Origin: an uncultured Parabacteroides sp.
GTDB lineage: Bacteria > Bacteroidota > Bacteroidia > Bacteroidales > Tannerellaceae
Length of the DNA: 64,000 nt
Assembly: GCA_944325335.1 (NCBI GenBank)
Contig: CALUZR010000012.1
Span: 5,860 to 69,859 of the forward strand
Direction: 5' to 3'
Notes under the pieces: generated by a model
Told to the model about the DNA's origin: nothing
Database searches by the model: none
What the model saw: only the letters and a program-made list of their open reading frames with translations
Translations under genes and position numbers: made by a program
Shown here: positions 2,329-47,651 of the stretch, in pieces
How positions within the stretch are numbered: the first letter of the stretch is position 1
How the letters are laid out: each line of letters starts with the position of its first letter

Positions 2329-4299
2329 TCAACGTATCTCTACTTGGAAACGGTAAGTCAGGGAGCCTTCATTCCACATCTGGAAGTTCGTCCCCCACAG
2401 GTTATTGCTGAGGTTGAAATGGACTCCTCCCCGTATGTCTGGGTAATCCAGGGAATAGTTGATGCCTTTCGCCTCACCAATATTGGCCAGGAACGCAGTC
2501 GGGCTCCAAATGCGGATGGTATCAGTGGCGGTGATTATATCGATATACCGGTCTATCCCGTGCATCTGGCGGTTGCCTTTCTCCACGACATCCATCACAT
2601 CAACCCGCGAACCTGTCTTTTCCGCAACGATACCTTGGATATTATCTGCGAGGAAAGAGAACCAATATGCCTCGGGCAGGCGGACGGCGGGTTTATTCCA
2701 GATCGTCACGGCAATCTCCGCTTGTTTCTGGTTGGGCGTCGTATGGACTTCTACATACAGCCGTTCTGGATAGACACGTGCATCAGCCTTACTCTGGGGC
2801 AACCGGAGCTCATAGGCCTGGTAAGTACCCATAGGTTCCTCCCGCACCTCTTGGCGGACCACTTCAGCCGGAATGGAAAGGCTCACAGCTCCTGAGCTCC
2901 CCAGTCCTGTCTTCCCTAAATCGTCCAGCGCCCAGCCGTAGCGTGCTCGTAGATATTGCGAGAGATAGGATTCGTAGTCGAGGCTGTCATACATCTGGTA
3001 AAGCACGCCACCGAGCTGTAGCTTCCCCTCCAGCAAAGATAAAGTCCACGGGCGAGGTGCGACAGTTTCCGCTTGATTGGTAAAGGTCGGCACCGACGGG
3101 TGGTCGATGGCATCAAGTACCACCCTTGCCTCTTGTTGCCGGGAAGAAGACAAATAGCAAATGGCTTGTTCCAGGTAATCATCGAGCTCTTCCCACGACT
3201 TTTCCGCCTTCCGGAAGGGTGAGGTAGAGCGGGCTGCTTGAAAAGCATCCATGTCATATTTGTCCCAGTTCCGCAGGTGGGTTTTGACGTCGACCCCTTG
3301 GGTATGCTCAGCAATCAACCCTAATTGCAAGGCAAACGACAAGGATTCGTCGCTATCCTGCTTCATGCCCTCCTTCAGCCATTTCGTGTAGAGGGCCGAA
3401 AGTGCGCGGAACTTCGCCATGCGGATGGGGGAGCTTCCATAGCCATAAATCCAAGTGTCCCCAATCTCTGAGGTCACGACAGGCAGGGTTTCCTTGATTG
3501 CCTCCAGCTCGTGGGCAATTTCATTGAAGGATGCAGGTATCAGTTGTGCCTGTGGATATTTCTTACGCAATTCGGCATAGATGGATTTAACCTGTGCATA
3601 CGAGTGGGGACCATGGTTATCTCCCGTGAAATTCACGGAGACAGCCATCTTCCCACCCGGGAGCAAACTCTCCGTGCCGTAGTCTTGTTGGTACATAAGG
3701 ATGACTTCCTCATTCGTGGCAGGGTCGCGCCATCGGCAGAACTCCGGCACAGCTGGCAGGGGCGAGGCCGGATTCACTCCGACATGGAGCAGGCGAATCC
3801 CGGCCTTTGCCAATAGGGGGACAATGCCTCGCGTGTGCCCGGGGACGTCGGTCATCTTCGCGGCCACTGTCTCTTTTCCGTAGCGCGCATCCAATTGCTT
3901 TGAGACAAGGAGACACGTACTAAAGAGGTCTTCCGTCATGGTTTCCGACTCTACCGTGTATGGGACACCATTCCATACTATGTCGCCACGTTTGATGGCT
4001 TCCTGCAGCCTGGCCTTTTCCTGAGGGGAGGCTTGCTGGAGATATGTCCAGATTAACCATGAACCTGTCGTCCATACATAGCGCTCATTTTCGCTTCCTT
4101 CTGCCCGTAGCTTCTCTGCCACGTCCAAGGCTTTCGGGATAAACTCCTTCATATACCTCTCTGTAACGATGGAGCTAAGGTCGGTGAACCCGACATCCAA
4201 ATGGGTTTTAAATACCACATACACTTTCTCTACGCTTTGGTCCTGCGCATACGCGGCAAAAGACAAAAGCAAACTGAGGATTCCCACAATCAATCGCAT
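2329..4299 (-). CDS. GH38-like (DUF5054-type, from memory) putative glycoside hydrolase, secreted
   Basis: 656-aa ORF with a signal peptide (LLLSFAAYAQ). N-terminal VVFKTHLDVGFTD resembles the GH38-type metal-binding start. Lies inside the PUL. Confidence 0.7.
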   Translation of the reverse strand: MRLIVGILSLLLSFAAYAQDQSVEKVYVVFKTHLDVGFTDLSSIVTERYMKEFIPKALDVAEKLRAEGSENERYVWTTGSWLIWTYLQQASPQEKARLQEAIKRGDIVWNGVPYTVESETMTEDLFSTCLLVSKQLDARYGKETVAAKMTDVPGHTRGIVPLLAKAGIRLLHVGVNPASPLPAVPEFCRWRDPATNEEVILMYQQDYGTESLLPGGKMAVSVNFTGDNHGPHSYAQVKSIYAELRKKYPQAQLIPASFNEIAHELEAIKETLPVVTSEIGDTWIYGYGSSPIRMAKFRALSALYTKWLKEGMKQDSDESLSFALQLGLIAEHTQGVDVKTHLRNWDKYDMDAFQAARSTSPFRKAEKSWEELDDYLEQAICYLSSSRQQEARVVLDAIDHPSVPTFTNQAETVAPRPWTLSLLEGKLQLGGVLYQMYDSLDYESYLSQYLRARYGWALDDLGKTGLGSSGAVSLSIPAEVVRQEVREEPMGTYQAYELRLPQSKADARVYPERLYVEVHTTPNQKQAEIAVTIWNKPAVRLPEAYWFSFLADNIQGIVAEKTGSRVDVMDVVEKGNRQMHGIDRYIDIITATDTIRIWSPTAFLANIGEAKGINYSLDYPDIRGGVHFNLSNNLWGTNFQMWNEGSLTYRFQVEIR

Positions 4300-4310
4300 A
4301 CTTTCCTGTT

Positions 4311-6239
4311 TTATCGGGTTATCTTCATGACAAATCCGCCACCTGCCTGGAGCTCCTGACGGAATTCCCCGCCCCCGCGGACGTGGGTTGTTTTCATTTC
4401 CAGGCTCCGGCGTTCGCCTGGCTTATCACATGCGATTTCGGCCTTGTACCGGCCCTTTGGCAAGAAGTCCAACTGACATTGGAAGGTCCTCGCCTCGCTG
4501 CCATTCAATACGGAGAGATACCACACCTCCCCTTTGCGCCGGGCAATGGCCGCAATCTCCCCGATGGCGCTCTCCGGCAGTGCGACAGTTTCATCCCAAG
4601 TGACCGGCACCTCCTCAATCATGCGGCGGGCGGGACAGTTCAACATATCCTCCATGTCTGCTGCGAAGATCAACATGGGCGATGTGAACATGTAAATCGT
4701 AGCCAGTTGATGGGCAAATGTCACTTCCTTGGGGCAAAATGCACGGAAATTGAGTGGCGTGTAGTCTGCCGGGCCTGCCAGCCATCGTGTGAAGGGGAGT
4801 ACGGTATTGTGATAGGTCCACGCGGGCCCGGGAGCCCATGAATTTTCTGCGCCGACGCTCTCCAGTCCCCGGACGGCTTCCTTGGCCAATAGATTCGGAT
4901 ACGTGTACGTGTCGCCCGTGGGTTTGTTCACTCCATGGAATATGACCATGAGGTGCGCTTTCGCAGCGTCCCGGAGGATGTCCTCCATCAGTGTGACGGT
5001 AAACAAGTTCTCTGAATGGAAGAAGTCGATCTTGAGACCCTTTACCCCGATCTCGGCACACTTCTCCATAAAGTGGCGACGCTCCTCATCGTCTATGAGA
5101 CCGATGTCCGTACGATTGCCGGCGCGAGGGGAAGATGGACGCCATACCCAGATGTCGACACCCTTTCCTTTCGCATAGGAAACCAACTCAGACAGCAGGT
5201 CCCATTTCGTGCGGCCTTGGGCGTTGGGCTCCGTGTCTGGCCAGAGTTCCCATCCGTCATCCACCACTACCGTCTCTATGCCAAGCTCTGCACATCCATC
5301 GACATACTTCATGTGGTTCTGTACACTCAACCTTTCCACCCCGCCTTCTACCAGCCAGGTGAAGACAGCTCGTCCGGGCTTTATCCACTCTGTCTGCGCC
5401 CCGTGGGGGAAGAGTTTCGGGTCGGGCTGGTCCGCTACTTCCTGTATGATCGAGTTGTTCACCAGGTCGTTGAGGCTGTTTGCCAGCATAAGGACCCGCC
5501 AAGGTGTCACGATCCCCTCGTCTGTGCCACGCGGGGAAATGATCCAGGGAACGTCCCTGACGACCTGTTGCGCGTACTTCATGGGTGGCATGCCTGTGAG
5601 GGTACCCGTCTCGAGATGCCCTTTATTTTCCACATATCCATACTGTACGCGATTGTCGCCTACTCCAAAGAGCACGGCCCCGTGGTAGTGGAAGAGGTTC
5701 GCTTCCGTCAGGGCAGCGTAAATTCCATCCGGCGTGAGGAACGTGGCGGGTGGGGCGAGGAGCTCACCCTCCAGGGCCTCGACCTTCCGATCTTGATAGG
5801 CTTGCACCCACCCGTATTGGAAGGGACCACTCGCGTACCATGTCCTGGTTCCCTGTGGGAATTGGTAACTGGTTTCCTCGCCATATATGCATACCGGCTT
5901 GCCGTCTGTGGGGATATGATAGCGTAGCGCCATCCCGTCGTCGAATACTTTTGTTTCGATTTGGAAGGCACGGTCGTCCCGCTGCTTCACGGTATAAAGG
6001 ATATGGTCCGCACTGAGTGTGTCCGCCTCCAGGGCGACTACCTCTTTCCCATAGGGCCTGTTATCGATGTTAAGTCCCAAGGGAGAGGTCCCAATCATGT
6101 GGCGACCTTCAAAGTCCACCTTGTAGACGACTTCTTCTTGTGCGTTGACCCACACACGCATTTGTACATTCTCCGCCGCAGCTGTATAGGCTGCCAGCAA
6201 GCATGGCATCATTGCCAGCCAAGTGTTTCGTTTTCTCAT
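4311..6239 (-). CDS. Glycoside hydrolase family 97 (alpha-glucosidase/alpha-galactosidase type)
   Basis: 642-aa ORF with a signal peptide. Carries GH97-like blocks VVDDGW, GLKIDFF and FHGVNKPTGDTYTYPNLLAKEAVRGLE. Confidence 0.85.
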   Translation of the reverse strand: MRKRNTWLAMMPCLLAAYTAAAENVQMRVWVNAQEEVVYKVDFEGRHMIGTSPLGLNIDNRPYGKEVVALEADTLSADHILYTVKQRDDRAFQIETKVFDDGMALRYHIPTDGKPVCIYGEETSYQFPQGTRTWYASGPFQYGWVQAYQDRKVEALEGELLAPPATFLTPDGIYAALTEANLFHYHGAVLFGVGDNRVQYGYVENKGHLETGTLTGMPPMKYAQQVVRDVPWIISPRGTDEGIVTPWRVLMLANSLNDLVNNSIIQEVADQPDPKLFPHGAQTEWIKPGRAVFTWLVEGGVERLSVQNHMKYVDGCAELGIETVVVDDGWELWPDTEPNAQGRTKWDLLSELVSYAKGKGVDIWVWRPSSPRAGNRTDIGLIDDEERRHFMEKCAEIGVKGLKIDFFHSENLFTVTLMEDILRDAAKAHLMVIFHGVNKPTGDTYTYPNLLAKEAVRGLESVGAENSWAPGPAWTYHNTVLPFTRWLAGPADYTPLNFRAFCPKEVTFAHQLATIYMFTSPMLIFAADMEDMLNCPARRMIEEVPVTWDETVALPESAIGEIAAIARRKGEVWYLSVLNGSEARTFQCQLDFLPKGRYKAEIACDKPGERRSLEMKTTHVRGGGEFRQELQAGGGFVMKITR

Positions 6240-8891: not shown

Positions 8892-10016
8892 TTATACCAA
8901 TTTGATGATTTTGGCATATTCCAGCGACAAGGGTTTCCCCTCGTGGTACGTTTCGATTCGTATTTTATAATTACCTTCCGCAAAATCGCGAATCATGATG
9001 AATTCACACCCCTTGTTAGACCTCGCCAGGATGTCTTCAGCCGGTACTACTTCCTCGATACTCGAGTTTTCAGCTATTACCACAATTTTACCCGGACCAT
9101 CACCCTTCTCGTTCACGAGTTCAAAGCCTCCAGTCCATTCCATCAGCGTCTCCTTGCCCCGTGTGATGCCCGTAGCATCATAGGGATCCTTCACTTTGGA
9201 ATAGACGGCTGTGATTTCTAGCTTGGCAGGCTCCTCGGGCGTACTTGGGGTCTCCGTTGTCTCCGTCTTAGTGCCCTGTCCACGCCGCGTGAGCTTATCG
9301 TTCACCTCGACAATCAGCGCGTTAATTTTGTCGATAATCCCACCCAACACGGTACGTGTTTCTTCATCTTTTTGGACCATCTCGTTGGCTTGGTACATCA
9401 CATTAATTGCGCTCACCAGCTCCAGGAAGGCTTCATCGACGTCCTGACGAATCTTTTGCATATTCGTTTGAACTTTACGACCATGTTTTTCCGACGAGCG
9501 GGCTTTGTAGGTCGTATTGAAGTCCGTATTCGCCTCCTCGAGAAGTTCCACGGCATAATCCAATTCCAATACCGTCACCGCGGCAGCATACTTTTCCAAC
9601 TTGAGGGTCTGCACCAGGTTGGTAATCTCTGCCGTAATCTCGGAATAGGACTTACTGTTCGCACGACGGTATGGTTTAATCGCATATTGCAACAAATCCG
9701 CCGCTTTGTACTTTTCCTCTTTCGGGCAGTACATGTAGGAATCGATAATACTCTTCAGGAACAAAAATAACCTGTTCCGCTTGTTGTTTTTGGTTGTAAT
9801 TTCCACCGTCGAGGCATACCCTTGGTTCTGTTTATACACCAGGTCTTCTTGCTCGAACATGCTCACGTATGCGGCATATTGCGTATCGAAATGATAGGTC
9901 TCCGCCACCTCTTGGGGCACATCTTCTATCACATCTTGGTTAAACTGGAAGTGTTCACCATTACGCAACAAACCGATTTGCGTAGCACACGTTAAAACTT
10001 TCTTTGTGTTTGTCAT
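8892..10016 (-). CDS. Hypothetical protein with a C-terminal DUF4469-type Ig-like module and a helical N-terminal domain of unknown function
   Basis: 374-aa ORF. Its C-terminus (FAEGNYKIRIETYHEGKP) aligns with the C-terminus of 46735..47487 (LAEGNYTLRIETYIGTNG). The N-terminal LRNGEHFQF region looks DUF6261-like (from memory, unverified). No signal peptide. Confidence 0.8.
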   Translation of the reverse strand: MTNTKKVLTCATQIGLLRNGEHFQFNQDVIEDVPQEVAETYHFDTQYAAYVSMFEQEDLVYKQNQGYASTVEITTKNNKRNRLFLFLKSIIDSYMYCPKEEKYKAADLLQYAIKPYRRANSKSYSEITAEITNLVQTLKLEKYAAAVTVLELDYAVELLEEANTDFNTTYKARSSEKHGRKVQTNMQKIRQDVDEAFLELVSAINVMYQANEMVQKDEETRTVLGGIIDKINALIVEVNDKLTRRGQGTKTETTETPSTPEEPAKLEITAVYSKVKDPYDATGITRGKETLMEWTGGFELVNEKGDGPGKIVVIAENSSIEEVVPAEDILARSNKGCEFIMIRDFAEGNYKIRIETYHEGKPLSLEYAKIIKLV

Positions 10017-10067
10017 TGTACCTATTTTAAAAATGAATAATAGTTATCTAAATACCTCTATTGATAT

Positions 10068-10298
10068 CCCACGCGTGTGGGACGCCTTCCAAGTCTCCCG
10101 GAAACCTTCCCGTTCCGTGTGTGATGCTTTCCAAGTCTCCCGGAAGCCTTCTCACACGTGTGTGACATTTTCCAAGTCTCCAGGAAACCTTCCCACACGT
10201 GTGGAATGCTTTCCAAGTCTCCCGGAAGCCTTCCCACGCGTGTGAGAGAGTTTCTAAGTCTACCGGAAACCGCCCCACGCGTGTGGGGGATTTTCCGG
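10068..10298. repeat. Tandem array, about 5.5 units of 41-42 bp, each with a CACGTG/CGCG-core dyad
   Basis: Units look like CCCAC(G/A)CGTGTGG-N-TTTCCAAGTCTCCCGGAA(A/G)CCTTC. Dyad centres lie near 10074, 10116 (degenerate), 10158, 10198, 10239 and 10280. Confidence 0.9.
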
Positions 10299-26867: not shown

Positions 26868-26990
26868 GGTTTCGGAACACTTCCGAAAGTCCCGCTGGCA
26901 TCAGCGACGGTTTCGGAACACTTCCGAAAGTTCCGCTGGGTCCAGCGACGGTTTCAGAACACTTCCGAAAGTTCCGCTGGCACCAACGAC
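26868..26990. repeat. Tandem array, 3 units of exactly 41 bp
   Basis: Units at 26868-26908, 26909-26949 and 26950-26990. Each contains TTTCGGAAcacTTCCGAAA (8-3-8 dyad) and a GCTGG..CAGC element. Confidence 0.92.
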
Positions 26991-30180: not shown

Positions 30181-30951
30181 TTAATTCCCTTTGTTCTTAT
30201 CAATCAGCTCTTGTGCCAATTGCATGTAATTAAGCGACCCTTTTGAGTCCGCGTCGTAAAGCAACACCGGCTTGCCATAGCTCGAGGCTTCGCTCAGCTT
30301 CACGTTGCGCTGGATGACGGTCGAGAAGACCATCTCCTGGAACGGGCGCTTCACCTCTTCGTATATCTGGTTGGCCAGGCGGAGGCGCGAATCGTACATC
30401 GTCAAGAGGAAGCCCTCAATCTCCAACGCGGGGTTCAGCTTCGACTTGATAATCTTGATCGTATTCAACAATTTGCTGATGCCTTCCAACGCGAAATATT
30501 CGCACTGGACGGGGATAATGACCGAATCCGCCGCCGTGAGCGCATTCACCGTAATCAATCCCAACGAGGGCGAGCAATCGATCAGGATATAATCGTAATC
30601 CCCCTTGAGCGGAACCAGCATCCGCTTCAATATCTGCTCGCGCCCTTGTATGTTCAACATCTCGATTTCAGCCCCTACGAGGTCGATGTGCGAAGGCATG
30701 ACGTCCAACCCGTCCACCTCGGTATGCACAATCGCATCCTCCGGCTTTTCGCCATTAATCAGGCATTCATAAATGGAAAGTTCTACATTCCGGATATCAA
30801 TTCCCAGGCCAGATGAGGCATTCGCCTGCGGGTCTGCGTCAACAACCAGTACTTTCTTTTCCAAAGCGGCCAGCGATGCGGCCAAGTTGATAGCTGTAGT
30901 CGTCTTGCCTACGCCGCCTTTCTGATTTGCTAAAGCGATAATCTTTCCCAT
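30181..30951 (-). CDS. parA: Chromosome partitioning ATPase ParA (Soj)
   Basis: 256-aa ORF with the deviant Walker A motif KGGVGKTT. Confidence 0.95.
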   Translation of the reverse strand: MGKIIALANQKGGVGKTTTAINLAASLAALEKKVLVVDADPQANASSGLGIDIRNVELSIYECLINGEKPEDAIVHTEVDGLDVMPSHIDLVGAEIEMLNIQGREQILKRMLVPLKGDYDYILIDCSPSLGLITVNALTAADSVIIPVQCEYFALEGISKLLNTIKIIKSKLNPALEIEGFLLTMYDSRLRLANQIYEEVKRPFQEMVFSTVIQRNVKLSEASSYGKPVLLYDADSKGSLNYMQLAQELIDKNKGN

Positions 30952-36962: not shown

Positions 36963-37102
36963 GCGCCGCTCGGCGCAATACCTTTACGGCGTACGGCGCA
37001 ATACCTTTACGCCGCTCGGCGTAATACCTTTACGGCGTACGGCGCAATACCTTTACACCGCCCGGTGTAATACCTTTGCAGCGTACGGTGCAATACGCTT
37101 CC
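36963..37102. repeat. Tandem array, 6 units of 23-25 bp alternating between two subtypes (3 x 46 bp)
   Basis: Units end in AATACCTTTAC. Subtype A starts GCCGCTCGGCG and subtype B starts GGCGTACGGCG. The last two units are degenerate. Confidence 0.9.
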
Positions 37103-37163: not shown

Positions 37164-37171
37164 TACCTTTG
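37164..37171 (+). promoter_or_regulatory. -7 box for znuA
   Basis: TACCTTTG, 21 bp upstream of the ATG at 37192. Confidence 0.4.
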
Positions 37172-45787: not shown

Positions 45788-45883
45788 CATACATATATTA
45801 TATAAGTGTCTTGATTGACATCTATATAACCAACGGGGAAACCCGAAGCGATCTTTATTTCATAGAAAGGACAAGTGTAAGCG

Positions 45884-46099
45884 GGACGGTGAAACCGTCC
45901 AACCATGCTTAACCGCGGGTGACGCGTCAGCGTTACCTGCGGTAGTGGAATCCACCTCCATCCCGACCCCAAGGGGGTCGAACAGGGGGAACGAAGCAGT
46001 TCGACCCCTTCGAGGTCGAGGGGGATAGGGAGGCAGCCTCCCCGCAGGTAACGCTACGCGTCACCCGCGGTTAAGCATCGTTAGACGGCTTTGCCGTCT
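45884..46099. repeat. Long inverted repeat (arms of about 59 nt, spacer 99 nt), GC-rich
   Basis: The manual reverse complement of 46042-46099 matches 45884-45942. The inner 38 nt are perfect except for one 1-nt indel; the outer 21 nt have 6 mismatches. The spacer contains its own 10-bp stem (GGGGTCGAAC..GTTCGACCCC). Confidence 0.9.
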
Positions 46100-46193: not shown

Positions 46194-46341
46194 GATGACG
46201 TATGAGGTGTTCAGAGACCCTTCGACTTTGCTCAGGGTGACGTAGGAATAAAACAGGATGACGTAAGAGTAAAAACAGGGCAACGTTGAAGTAAAACAGT
46301 GACGTAAGTGTAAAGCTGGATGACGTAGATATAGAAACAAA
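46194..46341. repeat. 21-bp-phased array with a TGACGTA core (iteron-like)
   Basis: TGACGTA at 46196, 46238, 46259, 46300 and 46321, plus degenerate CAACGTT at about 46281. The unit is roughly GATGACGTAAGAGTAAAAACAG. Confidence 0.85.
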
Positions 46342-46593
46342 CGACAATAGAGACAACATACAACAAACAAAATAACAATAAATTGTTTCTAATCCCTGAT
46401 ATAGTGGATTCGACAGAAGAATGCTTACTTTGGCTGCAGGGATTGCACCCCGTAAGCTGTTATGAAATGTGTTTTTAGAGGGGGGCGGAATACGCATCCC
46501 GTCCCCTTCTTTTCCCAGCACGGCGGGGAAGCATTCTTTTGTGGGATTCCCTTTGTCTGAGGGAGGCTGCAGACGCCCTATAGGAAGGGTTTC

Positions 46594-46681
46594 GACACTT
46601 CTTATAGGTGTCGGTGACACTTCTTATAAGTGTCGGTGACACTTCTTATAGGTGTCCGAGACACTTCTTATAAGTGTCGAC
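46594..46681. repeat. Tandem array, 4 units of 22 bp, equivalent to 8 alternating heptad half-sites GACACTT / AAGTGTC
   Basis: Units at 46594, 46616, 46638 and 46660. Half-sites are separated alternately by 5 and 3 bp, so they recur about every 11 bp. Confidence 0.92.
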
Positions 46682-46734
46682 AGCTTGTTTGAGATTAATT
46701 CTATTAATTGTATAACTTCTTAAATTACAACATT

Positions 46735-47487
46735 ATGCCGATTTTCAAGGCCGTATACAAAAAGATGTCAAAGCTGTGGTATCCACAGGCGGTGACGATC
46801 GGTTCGCCCGTTTCGATGGACGAATTGTGTAAGCAAATCGCCATGATGACGACGGTCAGCACGCCGGATGCAAAGGCGGCGATCGAAGCTATGGGCATGG
46901 TGATGGGCGGTTTTATGAACTCGGGCCGTAGCGTACAAGTCGACGGGCTGGATACCTTCTATTATACTTGTACTTCTAAAGGACAAGGTGTGAGTACTGC
47001 TGACGAGGTGAGCGCGAAGCAAATCGCAGGCACGCGCGTTCGTTTTGTTCCCGAATCAAGCCGGAAGGGTAACACGATAAAACGCACTTTGATTAGCGAA
47101 GATTTGGTATGGACAAATATTAAGGAGATTAGCACGCTGGACGGTACGGGCGTTACTTCGAGCTTTACCGGCATCACGTGTGGCGCGACGGGACAGACGA
47201 ACGGGCACCTGAAGCGCGGCGCCATCGCTTTTGCCAATGGTAATGGCATTGAATGCAAGGACGCGACGGGCGAAGGGTTTGGCAAGGGCTATTTGCGGAA
47301 CGAGTTTGAGGTGGACGAGGAACTTGAAATCAGGTTGTCGACCAACGATTCGCTGGTTTTCGTCGTGCCCATCGATTTGGCAGAGGGCAACTATACGCTC
47401 CGCATCGAAACGTATATCGGTACGAACGGCAAGTTGCAAACCGAACCGCGCACCATCGAGTACCCAAGTCCTTTGGTATTAGAATAA
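46735..47487 (+). CDS. HU-like DNA-binding domain protein with a C-terminal DUF4469-type Ig-like module
   Basis: Start at MPIFKAVYKK (typical HU-like N-terminus), chosen over the TTG at 46708. The C-terminus LAEGNYTLRIETY matches the 8892..10016 protein. Confidence 0.85.
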   Translation: MPIFKAVYKKMSKLWYPQAVTIGSPVSMDELCKQIAMMTTVSTPDAKAAIEAMGMVMGGFMNSGRSVQVDGLDTFYYTCTSKGQGVSTADEVSAKQIAGTRVRFVPESSRKGNTIKRTLISEDLVWTNIKEISTLDGTGVTSSFTGITCGATGQTNGHLKRGAIAFANGNGIECKDATGEGFGKGYLRNEFEVDEELEIRLSTNDSLVFVVPIDLAEGNYTLRIETYIGTNGKLQTEPRTIEYPSPLVLE

Positions 47488-47651
47488 ATATAGATTTAAA
47501 GATAGATATCTACCTAAAAAGGCCGCAGGGATGCGCCCGAGTGGATTTTGTACAGTTACCATACTTCAAACGATTGGACATCTTCTCCGGTTCTTTTCTT
47601 TATTTCATCCTTCATTTCTTGTTGGATGGATTCGATAAGTTCCTTTCTGTG

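Follow-up and report, generated by a model that had tools for sequence, protein, structure and literature searches.

Within a 64,000-nucleotide stretch of DNA from an uncultured Parabacteroides sp. (hereafter designated the window), a tandem array of short palindromic units lies directly upstream of a gene encoding an HU-like protein, in a 1.1-kb intergenic region 3' of a SusC/SusD pair. The locus raises the question of whether this array is a protein-binding site and, if so, which protein reads it.

Tandem dyads and the putative promoter of an HU-HIG gene

Direct reading of the window gave four in-phase, head-to-tail 22-bp units at 46594-46678, each composed of GACACTT-N5-A(A/G)GTGTC and a 3-nt linker (unit formula, GACACTTCTTATA(G/A)GTGTC + 3 nt), with the letters running, unit by unit, GACACTTCTTATAGGTGTCggt / GACACTTCTTATAAGTGTCggt / GACACTTCTTATAGGTGTCcga / GACACTTCTTATAAGTGTCgac (46594-46679). 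The array, its flanks, and the downstream gene comprise the following features.

46572..46593, no strand: decayed fifth unit ahead of the array, 62% unit-like, from repeat comparison
46594..46612, no strand: unit 1, dyad GACACTT-cttat-AGGTGTC, linker ggt, from sequence reading
46616..46634, no strand: unit 2, dyad GACACTT-cttat-AAGTGTC, linker ggt, from sequence reading
46638..46656, no strand: unit 3, dyad GACACTT-cttat-AGGTGTC, linker cga, from sequence reading
46660..46678, no strand: unit 4, dyad GACACTT-cttat-AAGTGTC, promoter-proximal, from sequence reading
46688..46691, + strand: TTTG, candidate -33 element, 9 nt past the array, inferred by eye
46713..46720, + strand: TAACTTCT, candidate -7 box (TAnnTTTG-like), 21 nt past TTTG and 14 nt before the ATG, inferred by eye
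46735..47487, + strand: gene for an HU-HIG + DUF4469 Ig-like protein of 250 aa, the proposed trans factor, from Pfam and a PDB fold match
47156, no strand: breakpoint of recombination within the gene, where the HU and Ig domains meet, from alignment with locus L015

The four-unit, 22-bp structure upstream of the HU-like/DUF4469 gene, as described in an earlier interpretation of the letters only (the sequence-only reading), was confirmed by the sequence, by TRF (period 22, 3.9 copies, 90% matches, score 144), and by shuffling, the 19-mer GACACTTCTTATARGTGTC occurring four times in the window against 0.00 expected (100 shuffles). Each unit is a 7+7 dyad with a 5-nt centre, a second dyad spans the unit junctions, and the spacing between half-site centres alternates between 12 and 10 bp, in agreement with that reading, which had placed dyads both in the unit interior and across the junctions, with half-sites recurring every ~10-12 bp. 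Its G/A alternation is likewise real (AGG in units 1 and 3, AAG in units 2 and 4), but the 44-bp super-unit drawn from it is absent in the Parabacteroides sp. An277 ortholog and in the other arrays, which argues for duplication history rather than function. The end of unit 4 (46678) is 56 nt from the ATG (46735), and not 53 bp as had been given. The flank 'ccctataggaagggt' of the decayed unit is kept beside two arrays of An277 (L005 and L014).

Promoter motifs were called by eye with the Bacteroides -33/-7 consensus, and the TTTG and TAnnTTTG-like boxes at 46688-46720 presumably match the Bacteroidetes -33/-7 promoter type. TTTG likewise follows the array in An277, and TAACTT, TTACTT, or TCACTT stands ~20-25 nt before the ATG in most loci with arrays of the same half-sites (GACAC/GTGTC, hereafter type 1). 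At locus L086, the upstream gene ends just 30 nt before the array. This narrow gap, together with the -33/-7-like motifs, places the array most likely at about -47 to -132 from a transcription start predicted at about 46722-46727, adjoining the -33 region of the putative HU-HIG promoter. A sigma-70 promoter scan gave nothing near the array, the sigma-70 model not being applicable to Bacteroidetes. In three metatranscriptomes, the locus was represented only by short, low-depth Logan contigs, which break at the repeat.

The window protein is clearly a member of the HU-HIG clade as judged by its two defining domains, PF18291 (HU-HIG; residues 13-114, E = 2e-14) and PF14734 (DUF4469; residues 148-241, E = 2e-8) in Pfam. 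Its top PDB fold match is 4FMR (BVU_2165; E = 1e-7), the one solved Ig-type HU-HIG structure, and an AF2 model, which is poor (pLDDT 61), has a hairpin at residues 3-20, two helices, and then beta arms. In an alignment read by eye, the tip of the beta arm is acidic and lacks the intercalating proline of HU. The ATG at 46735 is the correct start, because homologs begin with MPIFK or MAFFK. Neighbours are SusC/SusD, a 420-aa protein without assigned function, and DUF349. An identical gene with its array was found in chicken-gut metagenome contigs, and the nearest isolate genome is that of An277, with ~80% DNA identity over the gene and array.

According to Burroughs et al. 2017 (PMC5499826), HU-HIG proteins diversify fast in variable contexts, with extra strands in the HU-HIG domain and a C-terminal Ig or Gly-rich tail; the genes lack conserved operon partners, the canonical DNA cleft of 4FMR is filled by its Ig domain, and the proteins were inferred to be unlikely sequence-specific transcription factors, with no cis elements reported for them. 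The gene studied here shows the same rapid diversification and variable contexts. A T. denticola paper merely mentions an HU+DUF4469 gene, and searches of the literature on HU-HIG/DUF4469 proteins and on Bacteroides tandem or palindromic repeats gave no description of such arrays.

Distribution of the arrays and conservation of their units

When one genome per species was scanned, An277, with three loci, and three MAGs carrying the label uncultured Bacteroides were the only genomes with unit arrays, and the remaining single-unit matches equalled the number expected by chance. The An277 array at the HU-HIG ortholog (L005) has four units, the distal one being flipped; a second array lies between dapF and an LL-DAP-aminotransferase-like gene (dapL), 78 nt from the ATG of the latter and in the opposite orientation; and a third follows a copy of the long hairpin element that is also present at window 45885-46098. 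The two orphan arrays of this isolate (L008 and L014) coexist with its type-1 HU-HIG gene (L005), the product of which would be available to them in trans.

Scanning of metagenomes for a two-unit pattern gave 47 loci, and 44 of them proved to be true arrays. Downstream of 40 of these, an HU-HIG-type start (MAFFKPIYKK...) follows at 53 or 75-77 nt, 32 being followed by intact or contig-truncated HU-HIG genes and eight by an HU-HIG remnant of ~15 codons that fronts a 673-aa secreted GH-like ORF; among the other four, three were uninformative (two at contig edges) and one precedes an unrelated 1824-aa secreted protein. Type-1 arrays, with 2-5 units and a strict 22-bp period, are found in chicken-gut Parabacteroides and in human-gut contigs.

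At the eight remnant loci (L042, L047, L048, L054, L059, L066, L073, and L074; human-gut), the array, the promoter, and ~15 codons (MAFFKSIYKSISGTW...) are left, the array half-sites are intact, and the GH-like gene behind the remnant is within a PUL-like cluster; as far as their sequence goes, the L042-type loci would be apparent cases of promoter/operator capture after deletion of the HU-HIG gene. In runs X12, X7, X1, X5, and X6, some contigs have one more unit ahead of 46594 or connect 46678 with 46593, and other contigs of those runs pass from array units into unrelated flanks (e.g. ...CCTGTCCGGACCTTGCCTTAGGAGG...); copy-number variation at this locus, or more array loci in the same or related genomes, could account for both. 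Contigs of the DNA runs also break within the array, and they revealed other loci sharing the unit.

In a count over 102 units (28 distinct arrays), the GACAC of positions 1-5 is conserved at 96% or more, and T7, A13, G15, T16, and T18 are each conserved at 97%, whereas the 5-nt centre falls into four unrelated classes (CTTAT, AGCAC, CCYAT, and CTGAT), the linker is free, and the orientation of the asymmetric centre relative to the gene flips between loci. Position 17 varies (G63/A28/C11), while its partner, position 3, stays C (96%), and no compensatory stem changes were found among these 102 units. Such retention of the half-sites with free centre, linker, and orientation, and with no compensation, suggests that the half-sites are recognized in duplex DNA by a symmetric dimer, rather than being conserved as a hairpin.

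Eight further HU-HIG proteins were then picked by protein similarity only, and their contigs were inspected. All eight (P0024, P0012, P0051, P0054, P0070, P0039, P0035, and P0050) have a palindrome array upstream with a 22-23-bp period, ending ~45-130 nt before the start codon and built from the following units.

P0012, P0035, and P0039 (64-77% N-domain identity to the window protein): GACAC/GTGTC half-sites
P0051: CCTCA-N9-TGAGG, three times
P0050: AACAGTAT-A-ATACTGTT, four times
P0024: about 12 CTGAGGTCAG-type units
P0054: GACATACGTATGTC, five times
P0070 (Bacteroides sp. KG156): CTCTATAGAG, five times

The survey of regions upstream of HU-DUF4469 homologs was thus strongly positive, with a phased dyad array at every HU-HIG lineage inspected. 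The description of one half-site per helical turn given in the sequence-only reading holds for the long palindrome of the window lineage, but what recurs across the family is a single dyad every two turns (22-23 bp). N-domain pairs that are at least 64% identical (64-82%) share GACAC/GTGTC half-sites, whereas pairs with at most 60% identity have different palindromes, and this match between array type and N-domain holds across unrelated neighbourhoods and with both kinds of C-terminus (Ig or Gly-rich). Common descent of the HU-HIG lineages could account for their all having an array, but not for the sequence of each array. TRF analysis of ten unique protein-selected loci (8 HU-HIG and 2 DUF6261-DUF4469; 44 kb with ~47 other genes) detected no other intergenic array with a period of 15-60, and in 484 kb of non-window loci, such arrays are essentially confined to HU-HIG upstream regions.

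Downstream of 47718, locus L015 matches the window at 97% identity. Identity is 87.5% over 47156-47547, the Ig-domain region, and to the left of 47156 the two are unrelated, L015 having a different HU domain, array, and PUL there. The array thus differs although the downstream neighbours are 97% identical, but this 'swap' of array and HU domain argues only weakly for a functional link, because the whole left flank differs as part of a much larger replaced segment. HU-HIG genes were also seen at boundaries of variable DNA (window 47156, L015, L016, and L003), L003 and L016 having the same genes with other downstream neighbours (PIN toxin-antitoxin; SocA_Panacea).

Arrays are not restricted to genes with an HU-like domain. 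Array A (window 10067-10296) consists of five 41-bp units (82-bp super-unit) in which two palindromes, CCCACACGTGTGGGA-like and TTTCC-N9-GGAAA-like, alternate, and it ends ~50 bp upstream of a gene on the - strand (8892-10016) encoding DUF6261 with a C-terminal DUF4469 Ig-like domain. The homologs P0101 (L090) and P0134 (L091), with 39-47% identity, have their own, different arrays of ~41-42 bp at the equivalent place. The modelled DUF6261-DUF4469 protein has an all-helical N-domain and a 4FMR-like Ig domain. Because these genes, whose N-domain is not of the HU type, carry lineage-specific arrays, the reader of an array could differ from the product of the downstream gene.

Candidate readers of the arrays

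The array is quite probably a protein-bound operator of some kind, and we lean, if only slightly, towards its being read by the dimeric HU-HIG protein encoded downstream, as a cooperative operator for autoregulation. In the proposed mechanism, the four dyad sites (GACACTT-N5-AAGTGTC), spaced exactly two helical turns, would form a promoter-proximal operator in which each dyad takes one dimer of a sequence-specific protein. The 22-bp phasing would set all the dimers on one face of the DNA, making cooperative binding possible, and with the array abutting the -33 region, its occupancy would control HU-HIG transcription. The binder would be the gene's own product, acting via the HU-like N-terminal dimer, and for the resulting autoregulation a negative sign is our guess, given that 9 nt separate the last half-site from the -33 TTTG. 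The orphan arrays (before dapL, the 1824-aa secreted protein, and the GH gene behind a deleted HU-HIG gene) would then be additional targets in trans.

Several lines of evidence point to this reader. The palindrome changes from lineage to lineage, and no other linked gene offers itself as a candidate, since the downstream neighbours stay 97% identical in L015 with its different array and HU-HIG genes lack conserved operon partners; the HU-HIG protein is therefore the parsimonious choice. The loopless palindromes of several lineages (CTCTATAGAG and GACATACGTATGTC) argue for protein sites in duplex DNA rather than hairpins. As judged from sequence comparison, the fixed 22-23-bp dyads, the conservation of half-sites beside drifting centres and linkers, and the tracking of HU-domain type by array type would fit an operator for cooperative small dimers, with the adjacent HU-like protein as the best candidate. 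Self-recognition is opposed by the Ig domain of 4FMR, which occludes the canonical cleft, by the acidic beta-arm tip without the HU-type intercalating proline, by a 22-bp spacing tighter than the IHF footprint of ~35 bp, and by the DUF6261-DUF4469 family, which is not HU-like and carries arrays too. Nevertheless, the lineage-specific upstream arrays suggest the opposite of the published view that HU-HIG proteins lack sequence specificity. More tentatively, the HU-HIG proteins of Bacteroidales with their lineage-specific expansions, and perhaps DUF6261-DUF4469 proteins, may form many orthogonal protein/tandem-operator pairs that co-diversify rapidly, each with a private palindrome every two turns and acting at its own promoter and at a few captured ones (PUL glycosidases, dapL, relA, and znuA), and would then be a new class of sequence-specific HU-fold regulators; we regard this wider scheme as possible rather than probable.

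If the reader were an unlinked factor (an HU-HIG paralog, a wHTH-type member, or an unrelated dimeric regulator), the arrays would be genuine operators or enhancers and the HU-HIG + DUF4469 genes only the regulated class. Such a factor would accommodate the private arrays of the DUF6261-DUF4469 genes, the orphan arrays before dapL, the GH gene, and the large secreted protein, the window arrays B and C before relA/spoT and znuA, and the occluded cleft of 4FMR. We nevertheless consider it unlikely, since every lineage would need its own co-diversifying unlinked regulator, the array type follows the HU N-domain from one unrelated neighbourhood to another, and there is no conserved neighbour. Alternatively, the array might be a dispersed minisatellite, neutral or selfish, or an element of the REP/BIME kind, carried along with HU-HIG duplicates and without a regulatory role: intergenic tandem arrays and structured repeats abound in the genome, the 1.1-kb intergenic region contains other dispersed elements, the unit number varies from 2 to 5, and assemblies break at the array, the unit being common to other loci in the same metagenomes. 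This is made improbable by the conservation of the half-sites only across differently labelled genera, with centres, linkers, and flanks diverging, by a period kept strictly at 22-23 bp in unrelated sequence families, by the fixed distance to the ATG (53 or ~76 nt), by the near-exclusive position upstream of HU-HIG genes in human-gut loci, and by the intactness of the array after HU-HIG gene deletion. Moreover, unlike REP/BIME-REPIN elements, the array occurs at only ~3 loci per genome, overwhelmingly 5' of one gene family and without compensatory changes, and no transposase was found among the scanned window ORFs.

A role at the RNA or single-strand level, with four tandem 5'-leader hairpins, or with a terminator or insulator against read-through from the SusC/D operon, appears very unlikely. 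The + strand does fold strongly (z = -5.3), pairing survives in the A/G variant as U.G on the window's + strand, and contigs from two metatranscriptomes span 46606-46752. However, the - strand folds almost equally well, which is expected of any palindromic DNA, so that strong folding on both strands is uninformative; position 17 varies against a fixed partner 3, which is not covariation; L012 has a C6/A14 mismatch on the sense strand; and the unit flips its orientation relative to the gene. Nor could the loopless 10- and 14-bp palindromes of other lineages form RNA hairpins, a U-tract is missing, and the 30-nt gap in L086 leaves no room for a promoter upstream of the array. A structured RNA is also at variance with the lack of covarying stems and of a covariance-model match, Rfam giving zero matches at the gathering threshold over the whole window; a tRNA scan of the window was empty as well. 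The remaining alternative, a centromere (parC/sopC-like) or the replication-origin iterons of a mobile element with the HU-like protein as adaptor or initiator, recalls the iterons of P1, F, and pSC101 and the parC of pSK41 in that 4-5 repeats of ~22 bp immediately precede a gene encoding a small DNA-binding protein, but we give it hardly any credence. The context is chromosomal, with housekeeping genes and a PUL, no partner NTPase, Rep gene, DnaA boxes, or AT-rich unwinding element is adjacent, IMG/VR, PLSDB, and INPHARED yielded zero matches, and the An277 chromosome has several arrays.

Relation to known systems and other repeats of the window

The sequence-only reading had likened the array to centromere or operator sites of the plasmid ParR or omega type. 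ParR/parC (R1 and pSK41) and the omega heptads (pSM19035) are phased short repeats in 4-10 copies, bound cooperatively by small dimers of the ribbon-helix-helix fold, and, since they overlap or adjoin the promoter of the binder's operon, also serve as its autoregulatory operators; the omega heptads are contiguous at 7 bp, and the units of R1 parC are 11 bp. The array resembles them in its helically phased repeats near the putative promoter of the candidate binder's gene and differs in having one 19-bp dyad per 22 bp. No ribbon-helix-helix protein is encoded near the array, the adjacent protein having an HU-superfamily fold, and no ParM/ParA partner is linked, the only ParA-like gene being 16 kb away (30181-30951). 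This assignment as a centromere did not hold, as the locus is chromosomal, without a nearby NTPase, and absent from plasmid, phage, and viral collections. An origin from mobile elements was also rejected, because the two-unit pattern gave 0 matches in IMG/VR and BLAST of the array region against PLSDB and INPHARED gave no match.

Iteron replicons (P1 RepA, F RepE, and R6K pi) have 19-22-bp iterons upstream of rep and are autorepressed, the iterons being asymmetric direct repeats bound by monomers. The ~22-bp period, the 4-5 copies right upstream of the presumed binder gene, and the proposed autoregulation are common to both, whereas the units here are palindromic, the fold is that of HU and not of Rep, and several loci occur per chromosome; reading of the array flanks showed no AT-rich unwinding element, DnaA boxes, or adjacent Rep gene. 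The sopC site of the F plasmid has 12 repeats of 43 bp, each with a 16-bp inverted repeat, and is bound by the ParB-family protein SopB, which works with SopA in partition. Its tandem dyad units are similar, especially to the 41-bp two-palindrome arrays before DUF6261-DUF4469 genes, but partition machinery is not linked here. In the HU/IHF superfamily, IHF, Hbb, and TF1 are sequence-specific, and Fis and IHF are autoregulated via multiple sites at their own promoters. The IHF site is single and asymmetric, with the consensus WATCAANNNNTTR of ~13 bp within a ~35-bp wrap, whereas the array, although adjacent to a gene of the same superfamily, has symmetric dyads repeated every 22-23 bp and is not a site of the IHF type. 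By analogy, the array may work like ParR/parC, omega, SopB/sopC, and iteron-Rep systems, from all of which it departs in fold, partner genes, and replicon context.

Few DNA-binding-like families of gut Bacteroidales are as expanded, or as poorly understood, as the HU-HIG proteins, whose functions have so far been guessed, and an array at a set distance upstream of the start codon in each inspected lineage offers a concrete predicted DNA ligand per protein. If the binding is true, HU-fold proteins can evolve many orthogonal dyad specificities, and the diversification and expansion of HU-HIG would reflect co-diversification of protein and array. They would then also be a natural source of orthogonal repressor-operator pairs for synthetic biology in Bacteroides, and orphan arrays before GH, dapL, and other genes would mark promoter capture.

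The window contains further palindromic arrays. Array B (26868-26990) has three 41-bp units and is 133 nt upstream of a RelA/SpoT gene, and array C (36964-37096) has 5.5 units of 23/46 bp before znuA, flanked by a terminator-like hairpin after secDF and by a perfect TAccTTTG -7 box (37164-37171) before znuA; both may be orphan operator arrays for other paralogs.

Other repeats lie in the intergenic region itself. The long, near-perfect hairpin element at 45885-46098 has 43-nt arms with inner inverted repeats, follows a conserved leader that has a terminal inverted repeat of its own (45798-45829), and is present in at least 3 copies in An277 loci (L005 ~589-792 and 2233-2444; L014 ~4240-4450), so that it looks MITE- or REP-like. 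The pair at 45804-45824, which had been taken as related half-sites, was rejected as part of the array system: it is an inverted repeat that forms the end of another dispersed element, its An277 copy reads TATAGATGCC-ttgatt-GGTATCTATA at the equivalent place, and GACACTT is not enriched outside the array (3 further matches against 5.7 expected over the whole window). A degenerate 21-bp array at 46233-46339 (five units, TGACGTA core) has TGACGT-repeat relatives in L003 (1915-2010) and L016 (4451-4536) and represents another dispersed repeat family. Between this array and the dyad array, a 74-nt stretch (46391-46466) is skipped in DNA runs X6 and X7 and in RNA run X10, with ~71 other letters in X6 and X7, and this difference is a strain-level substitution.
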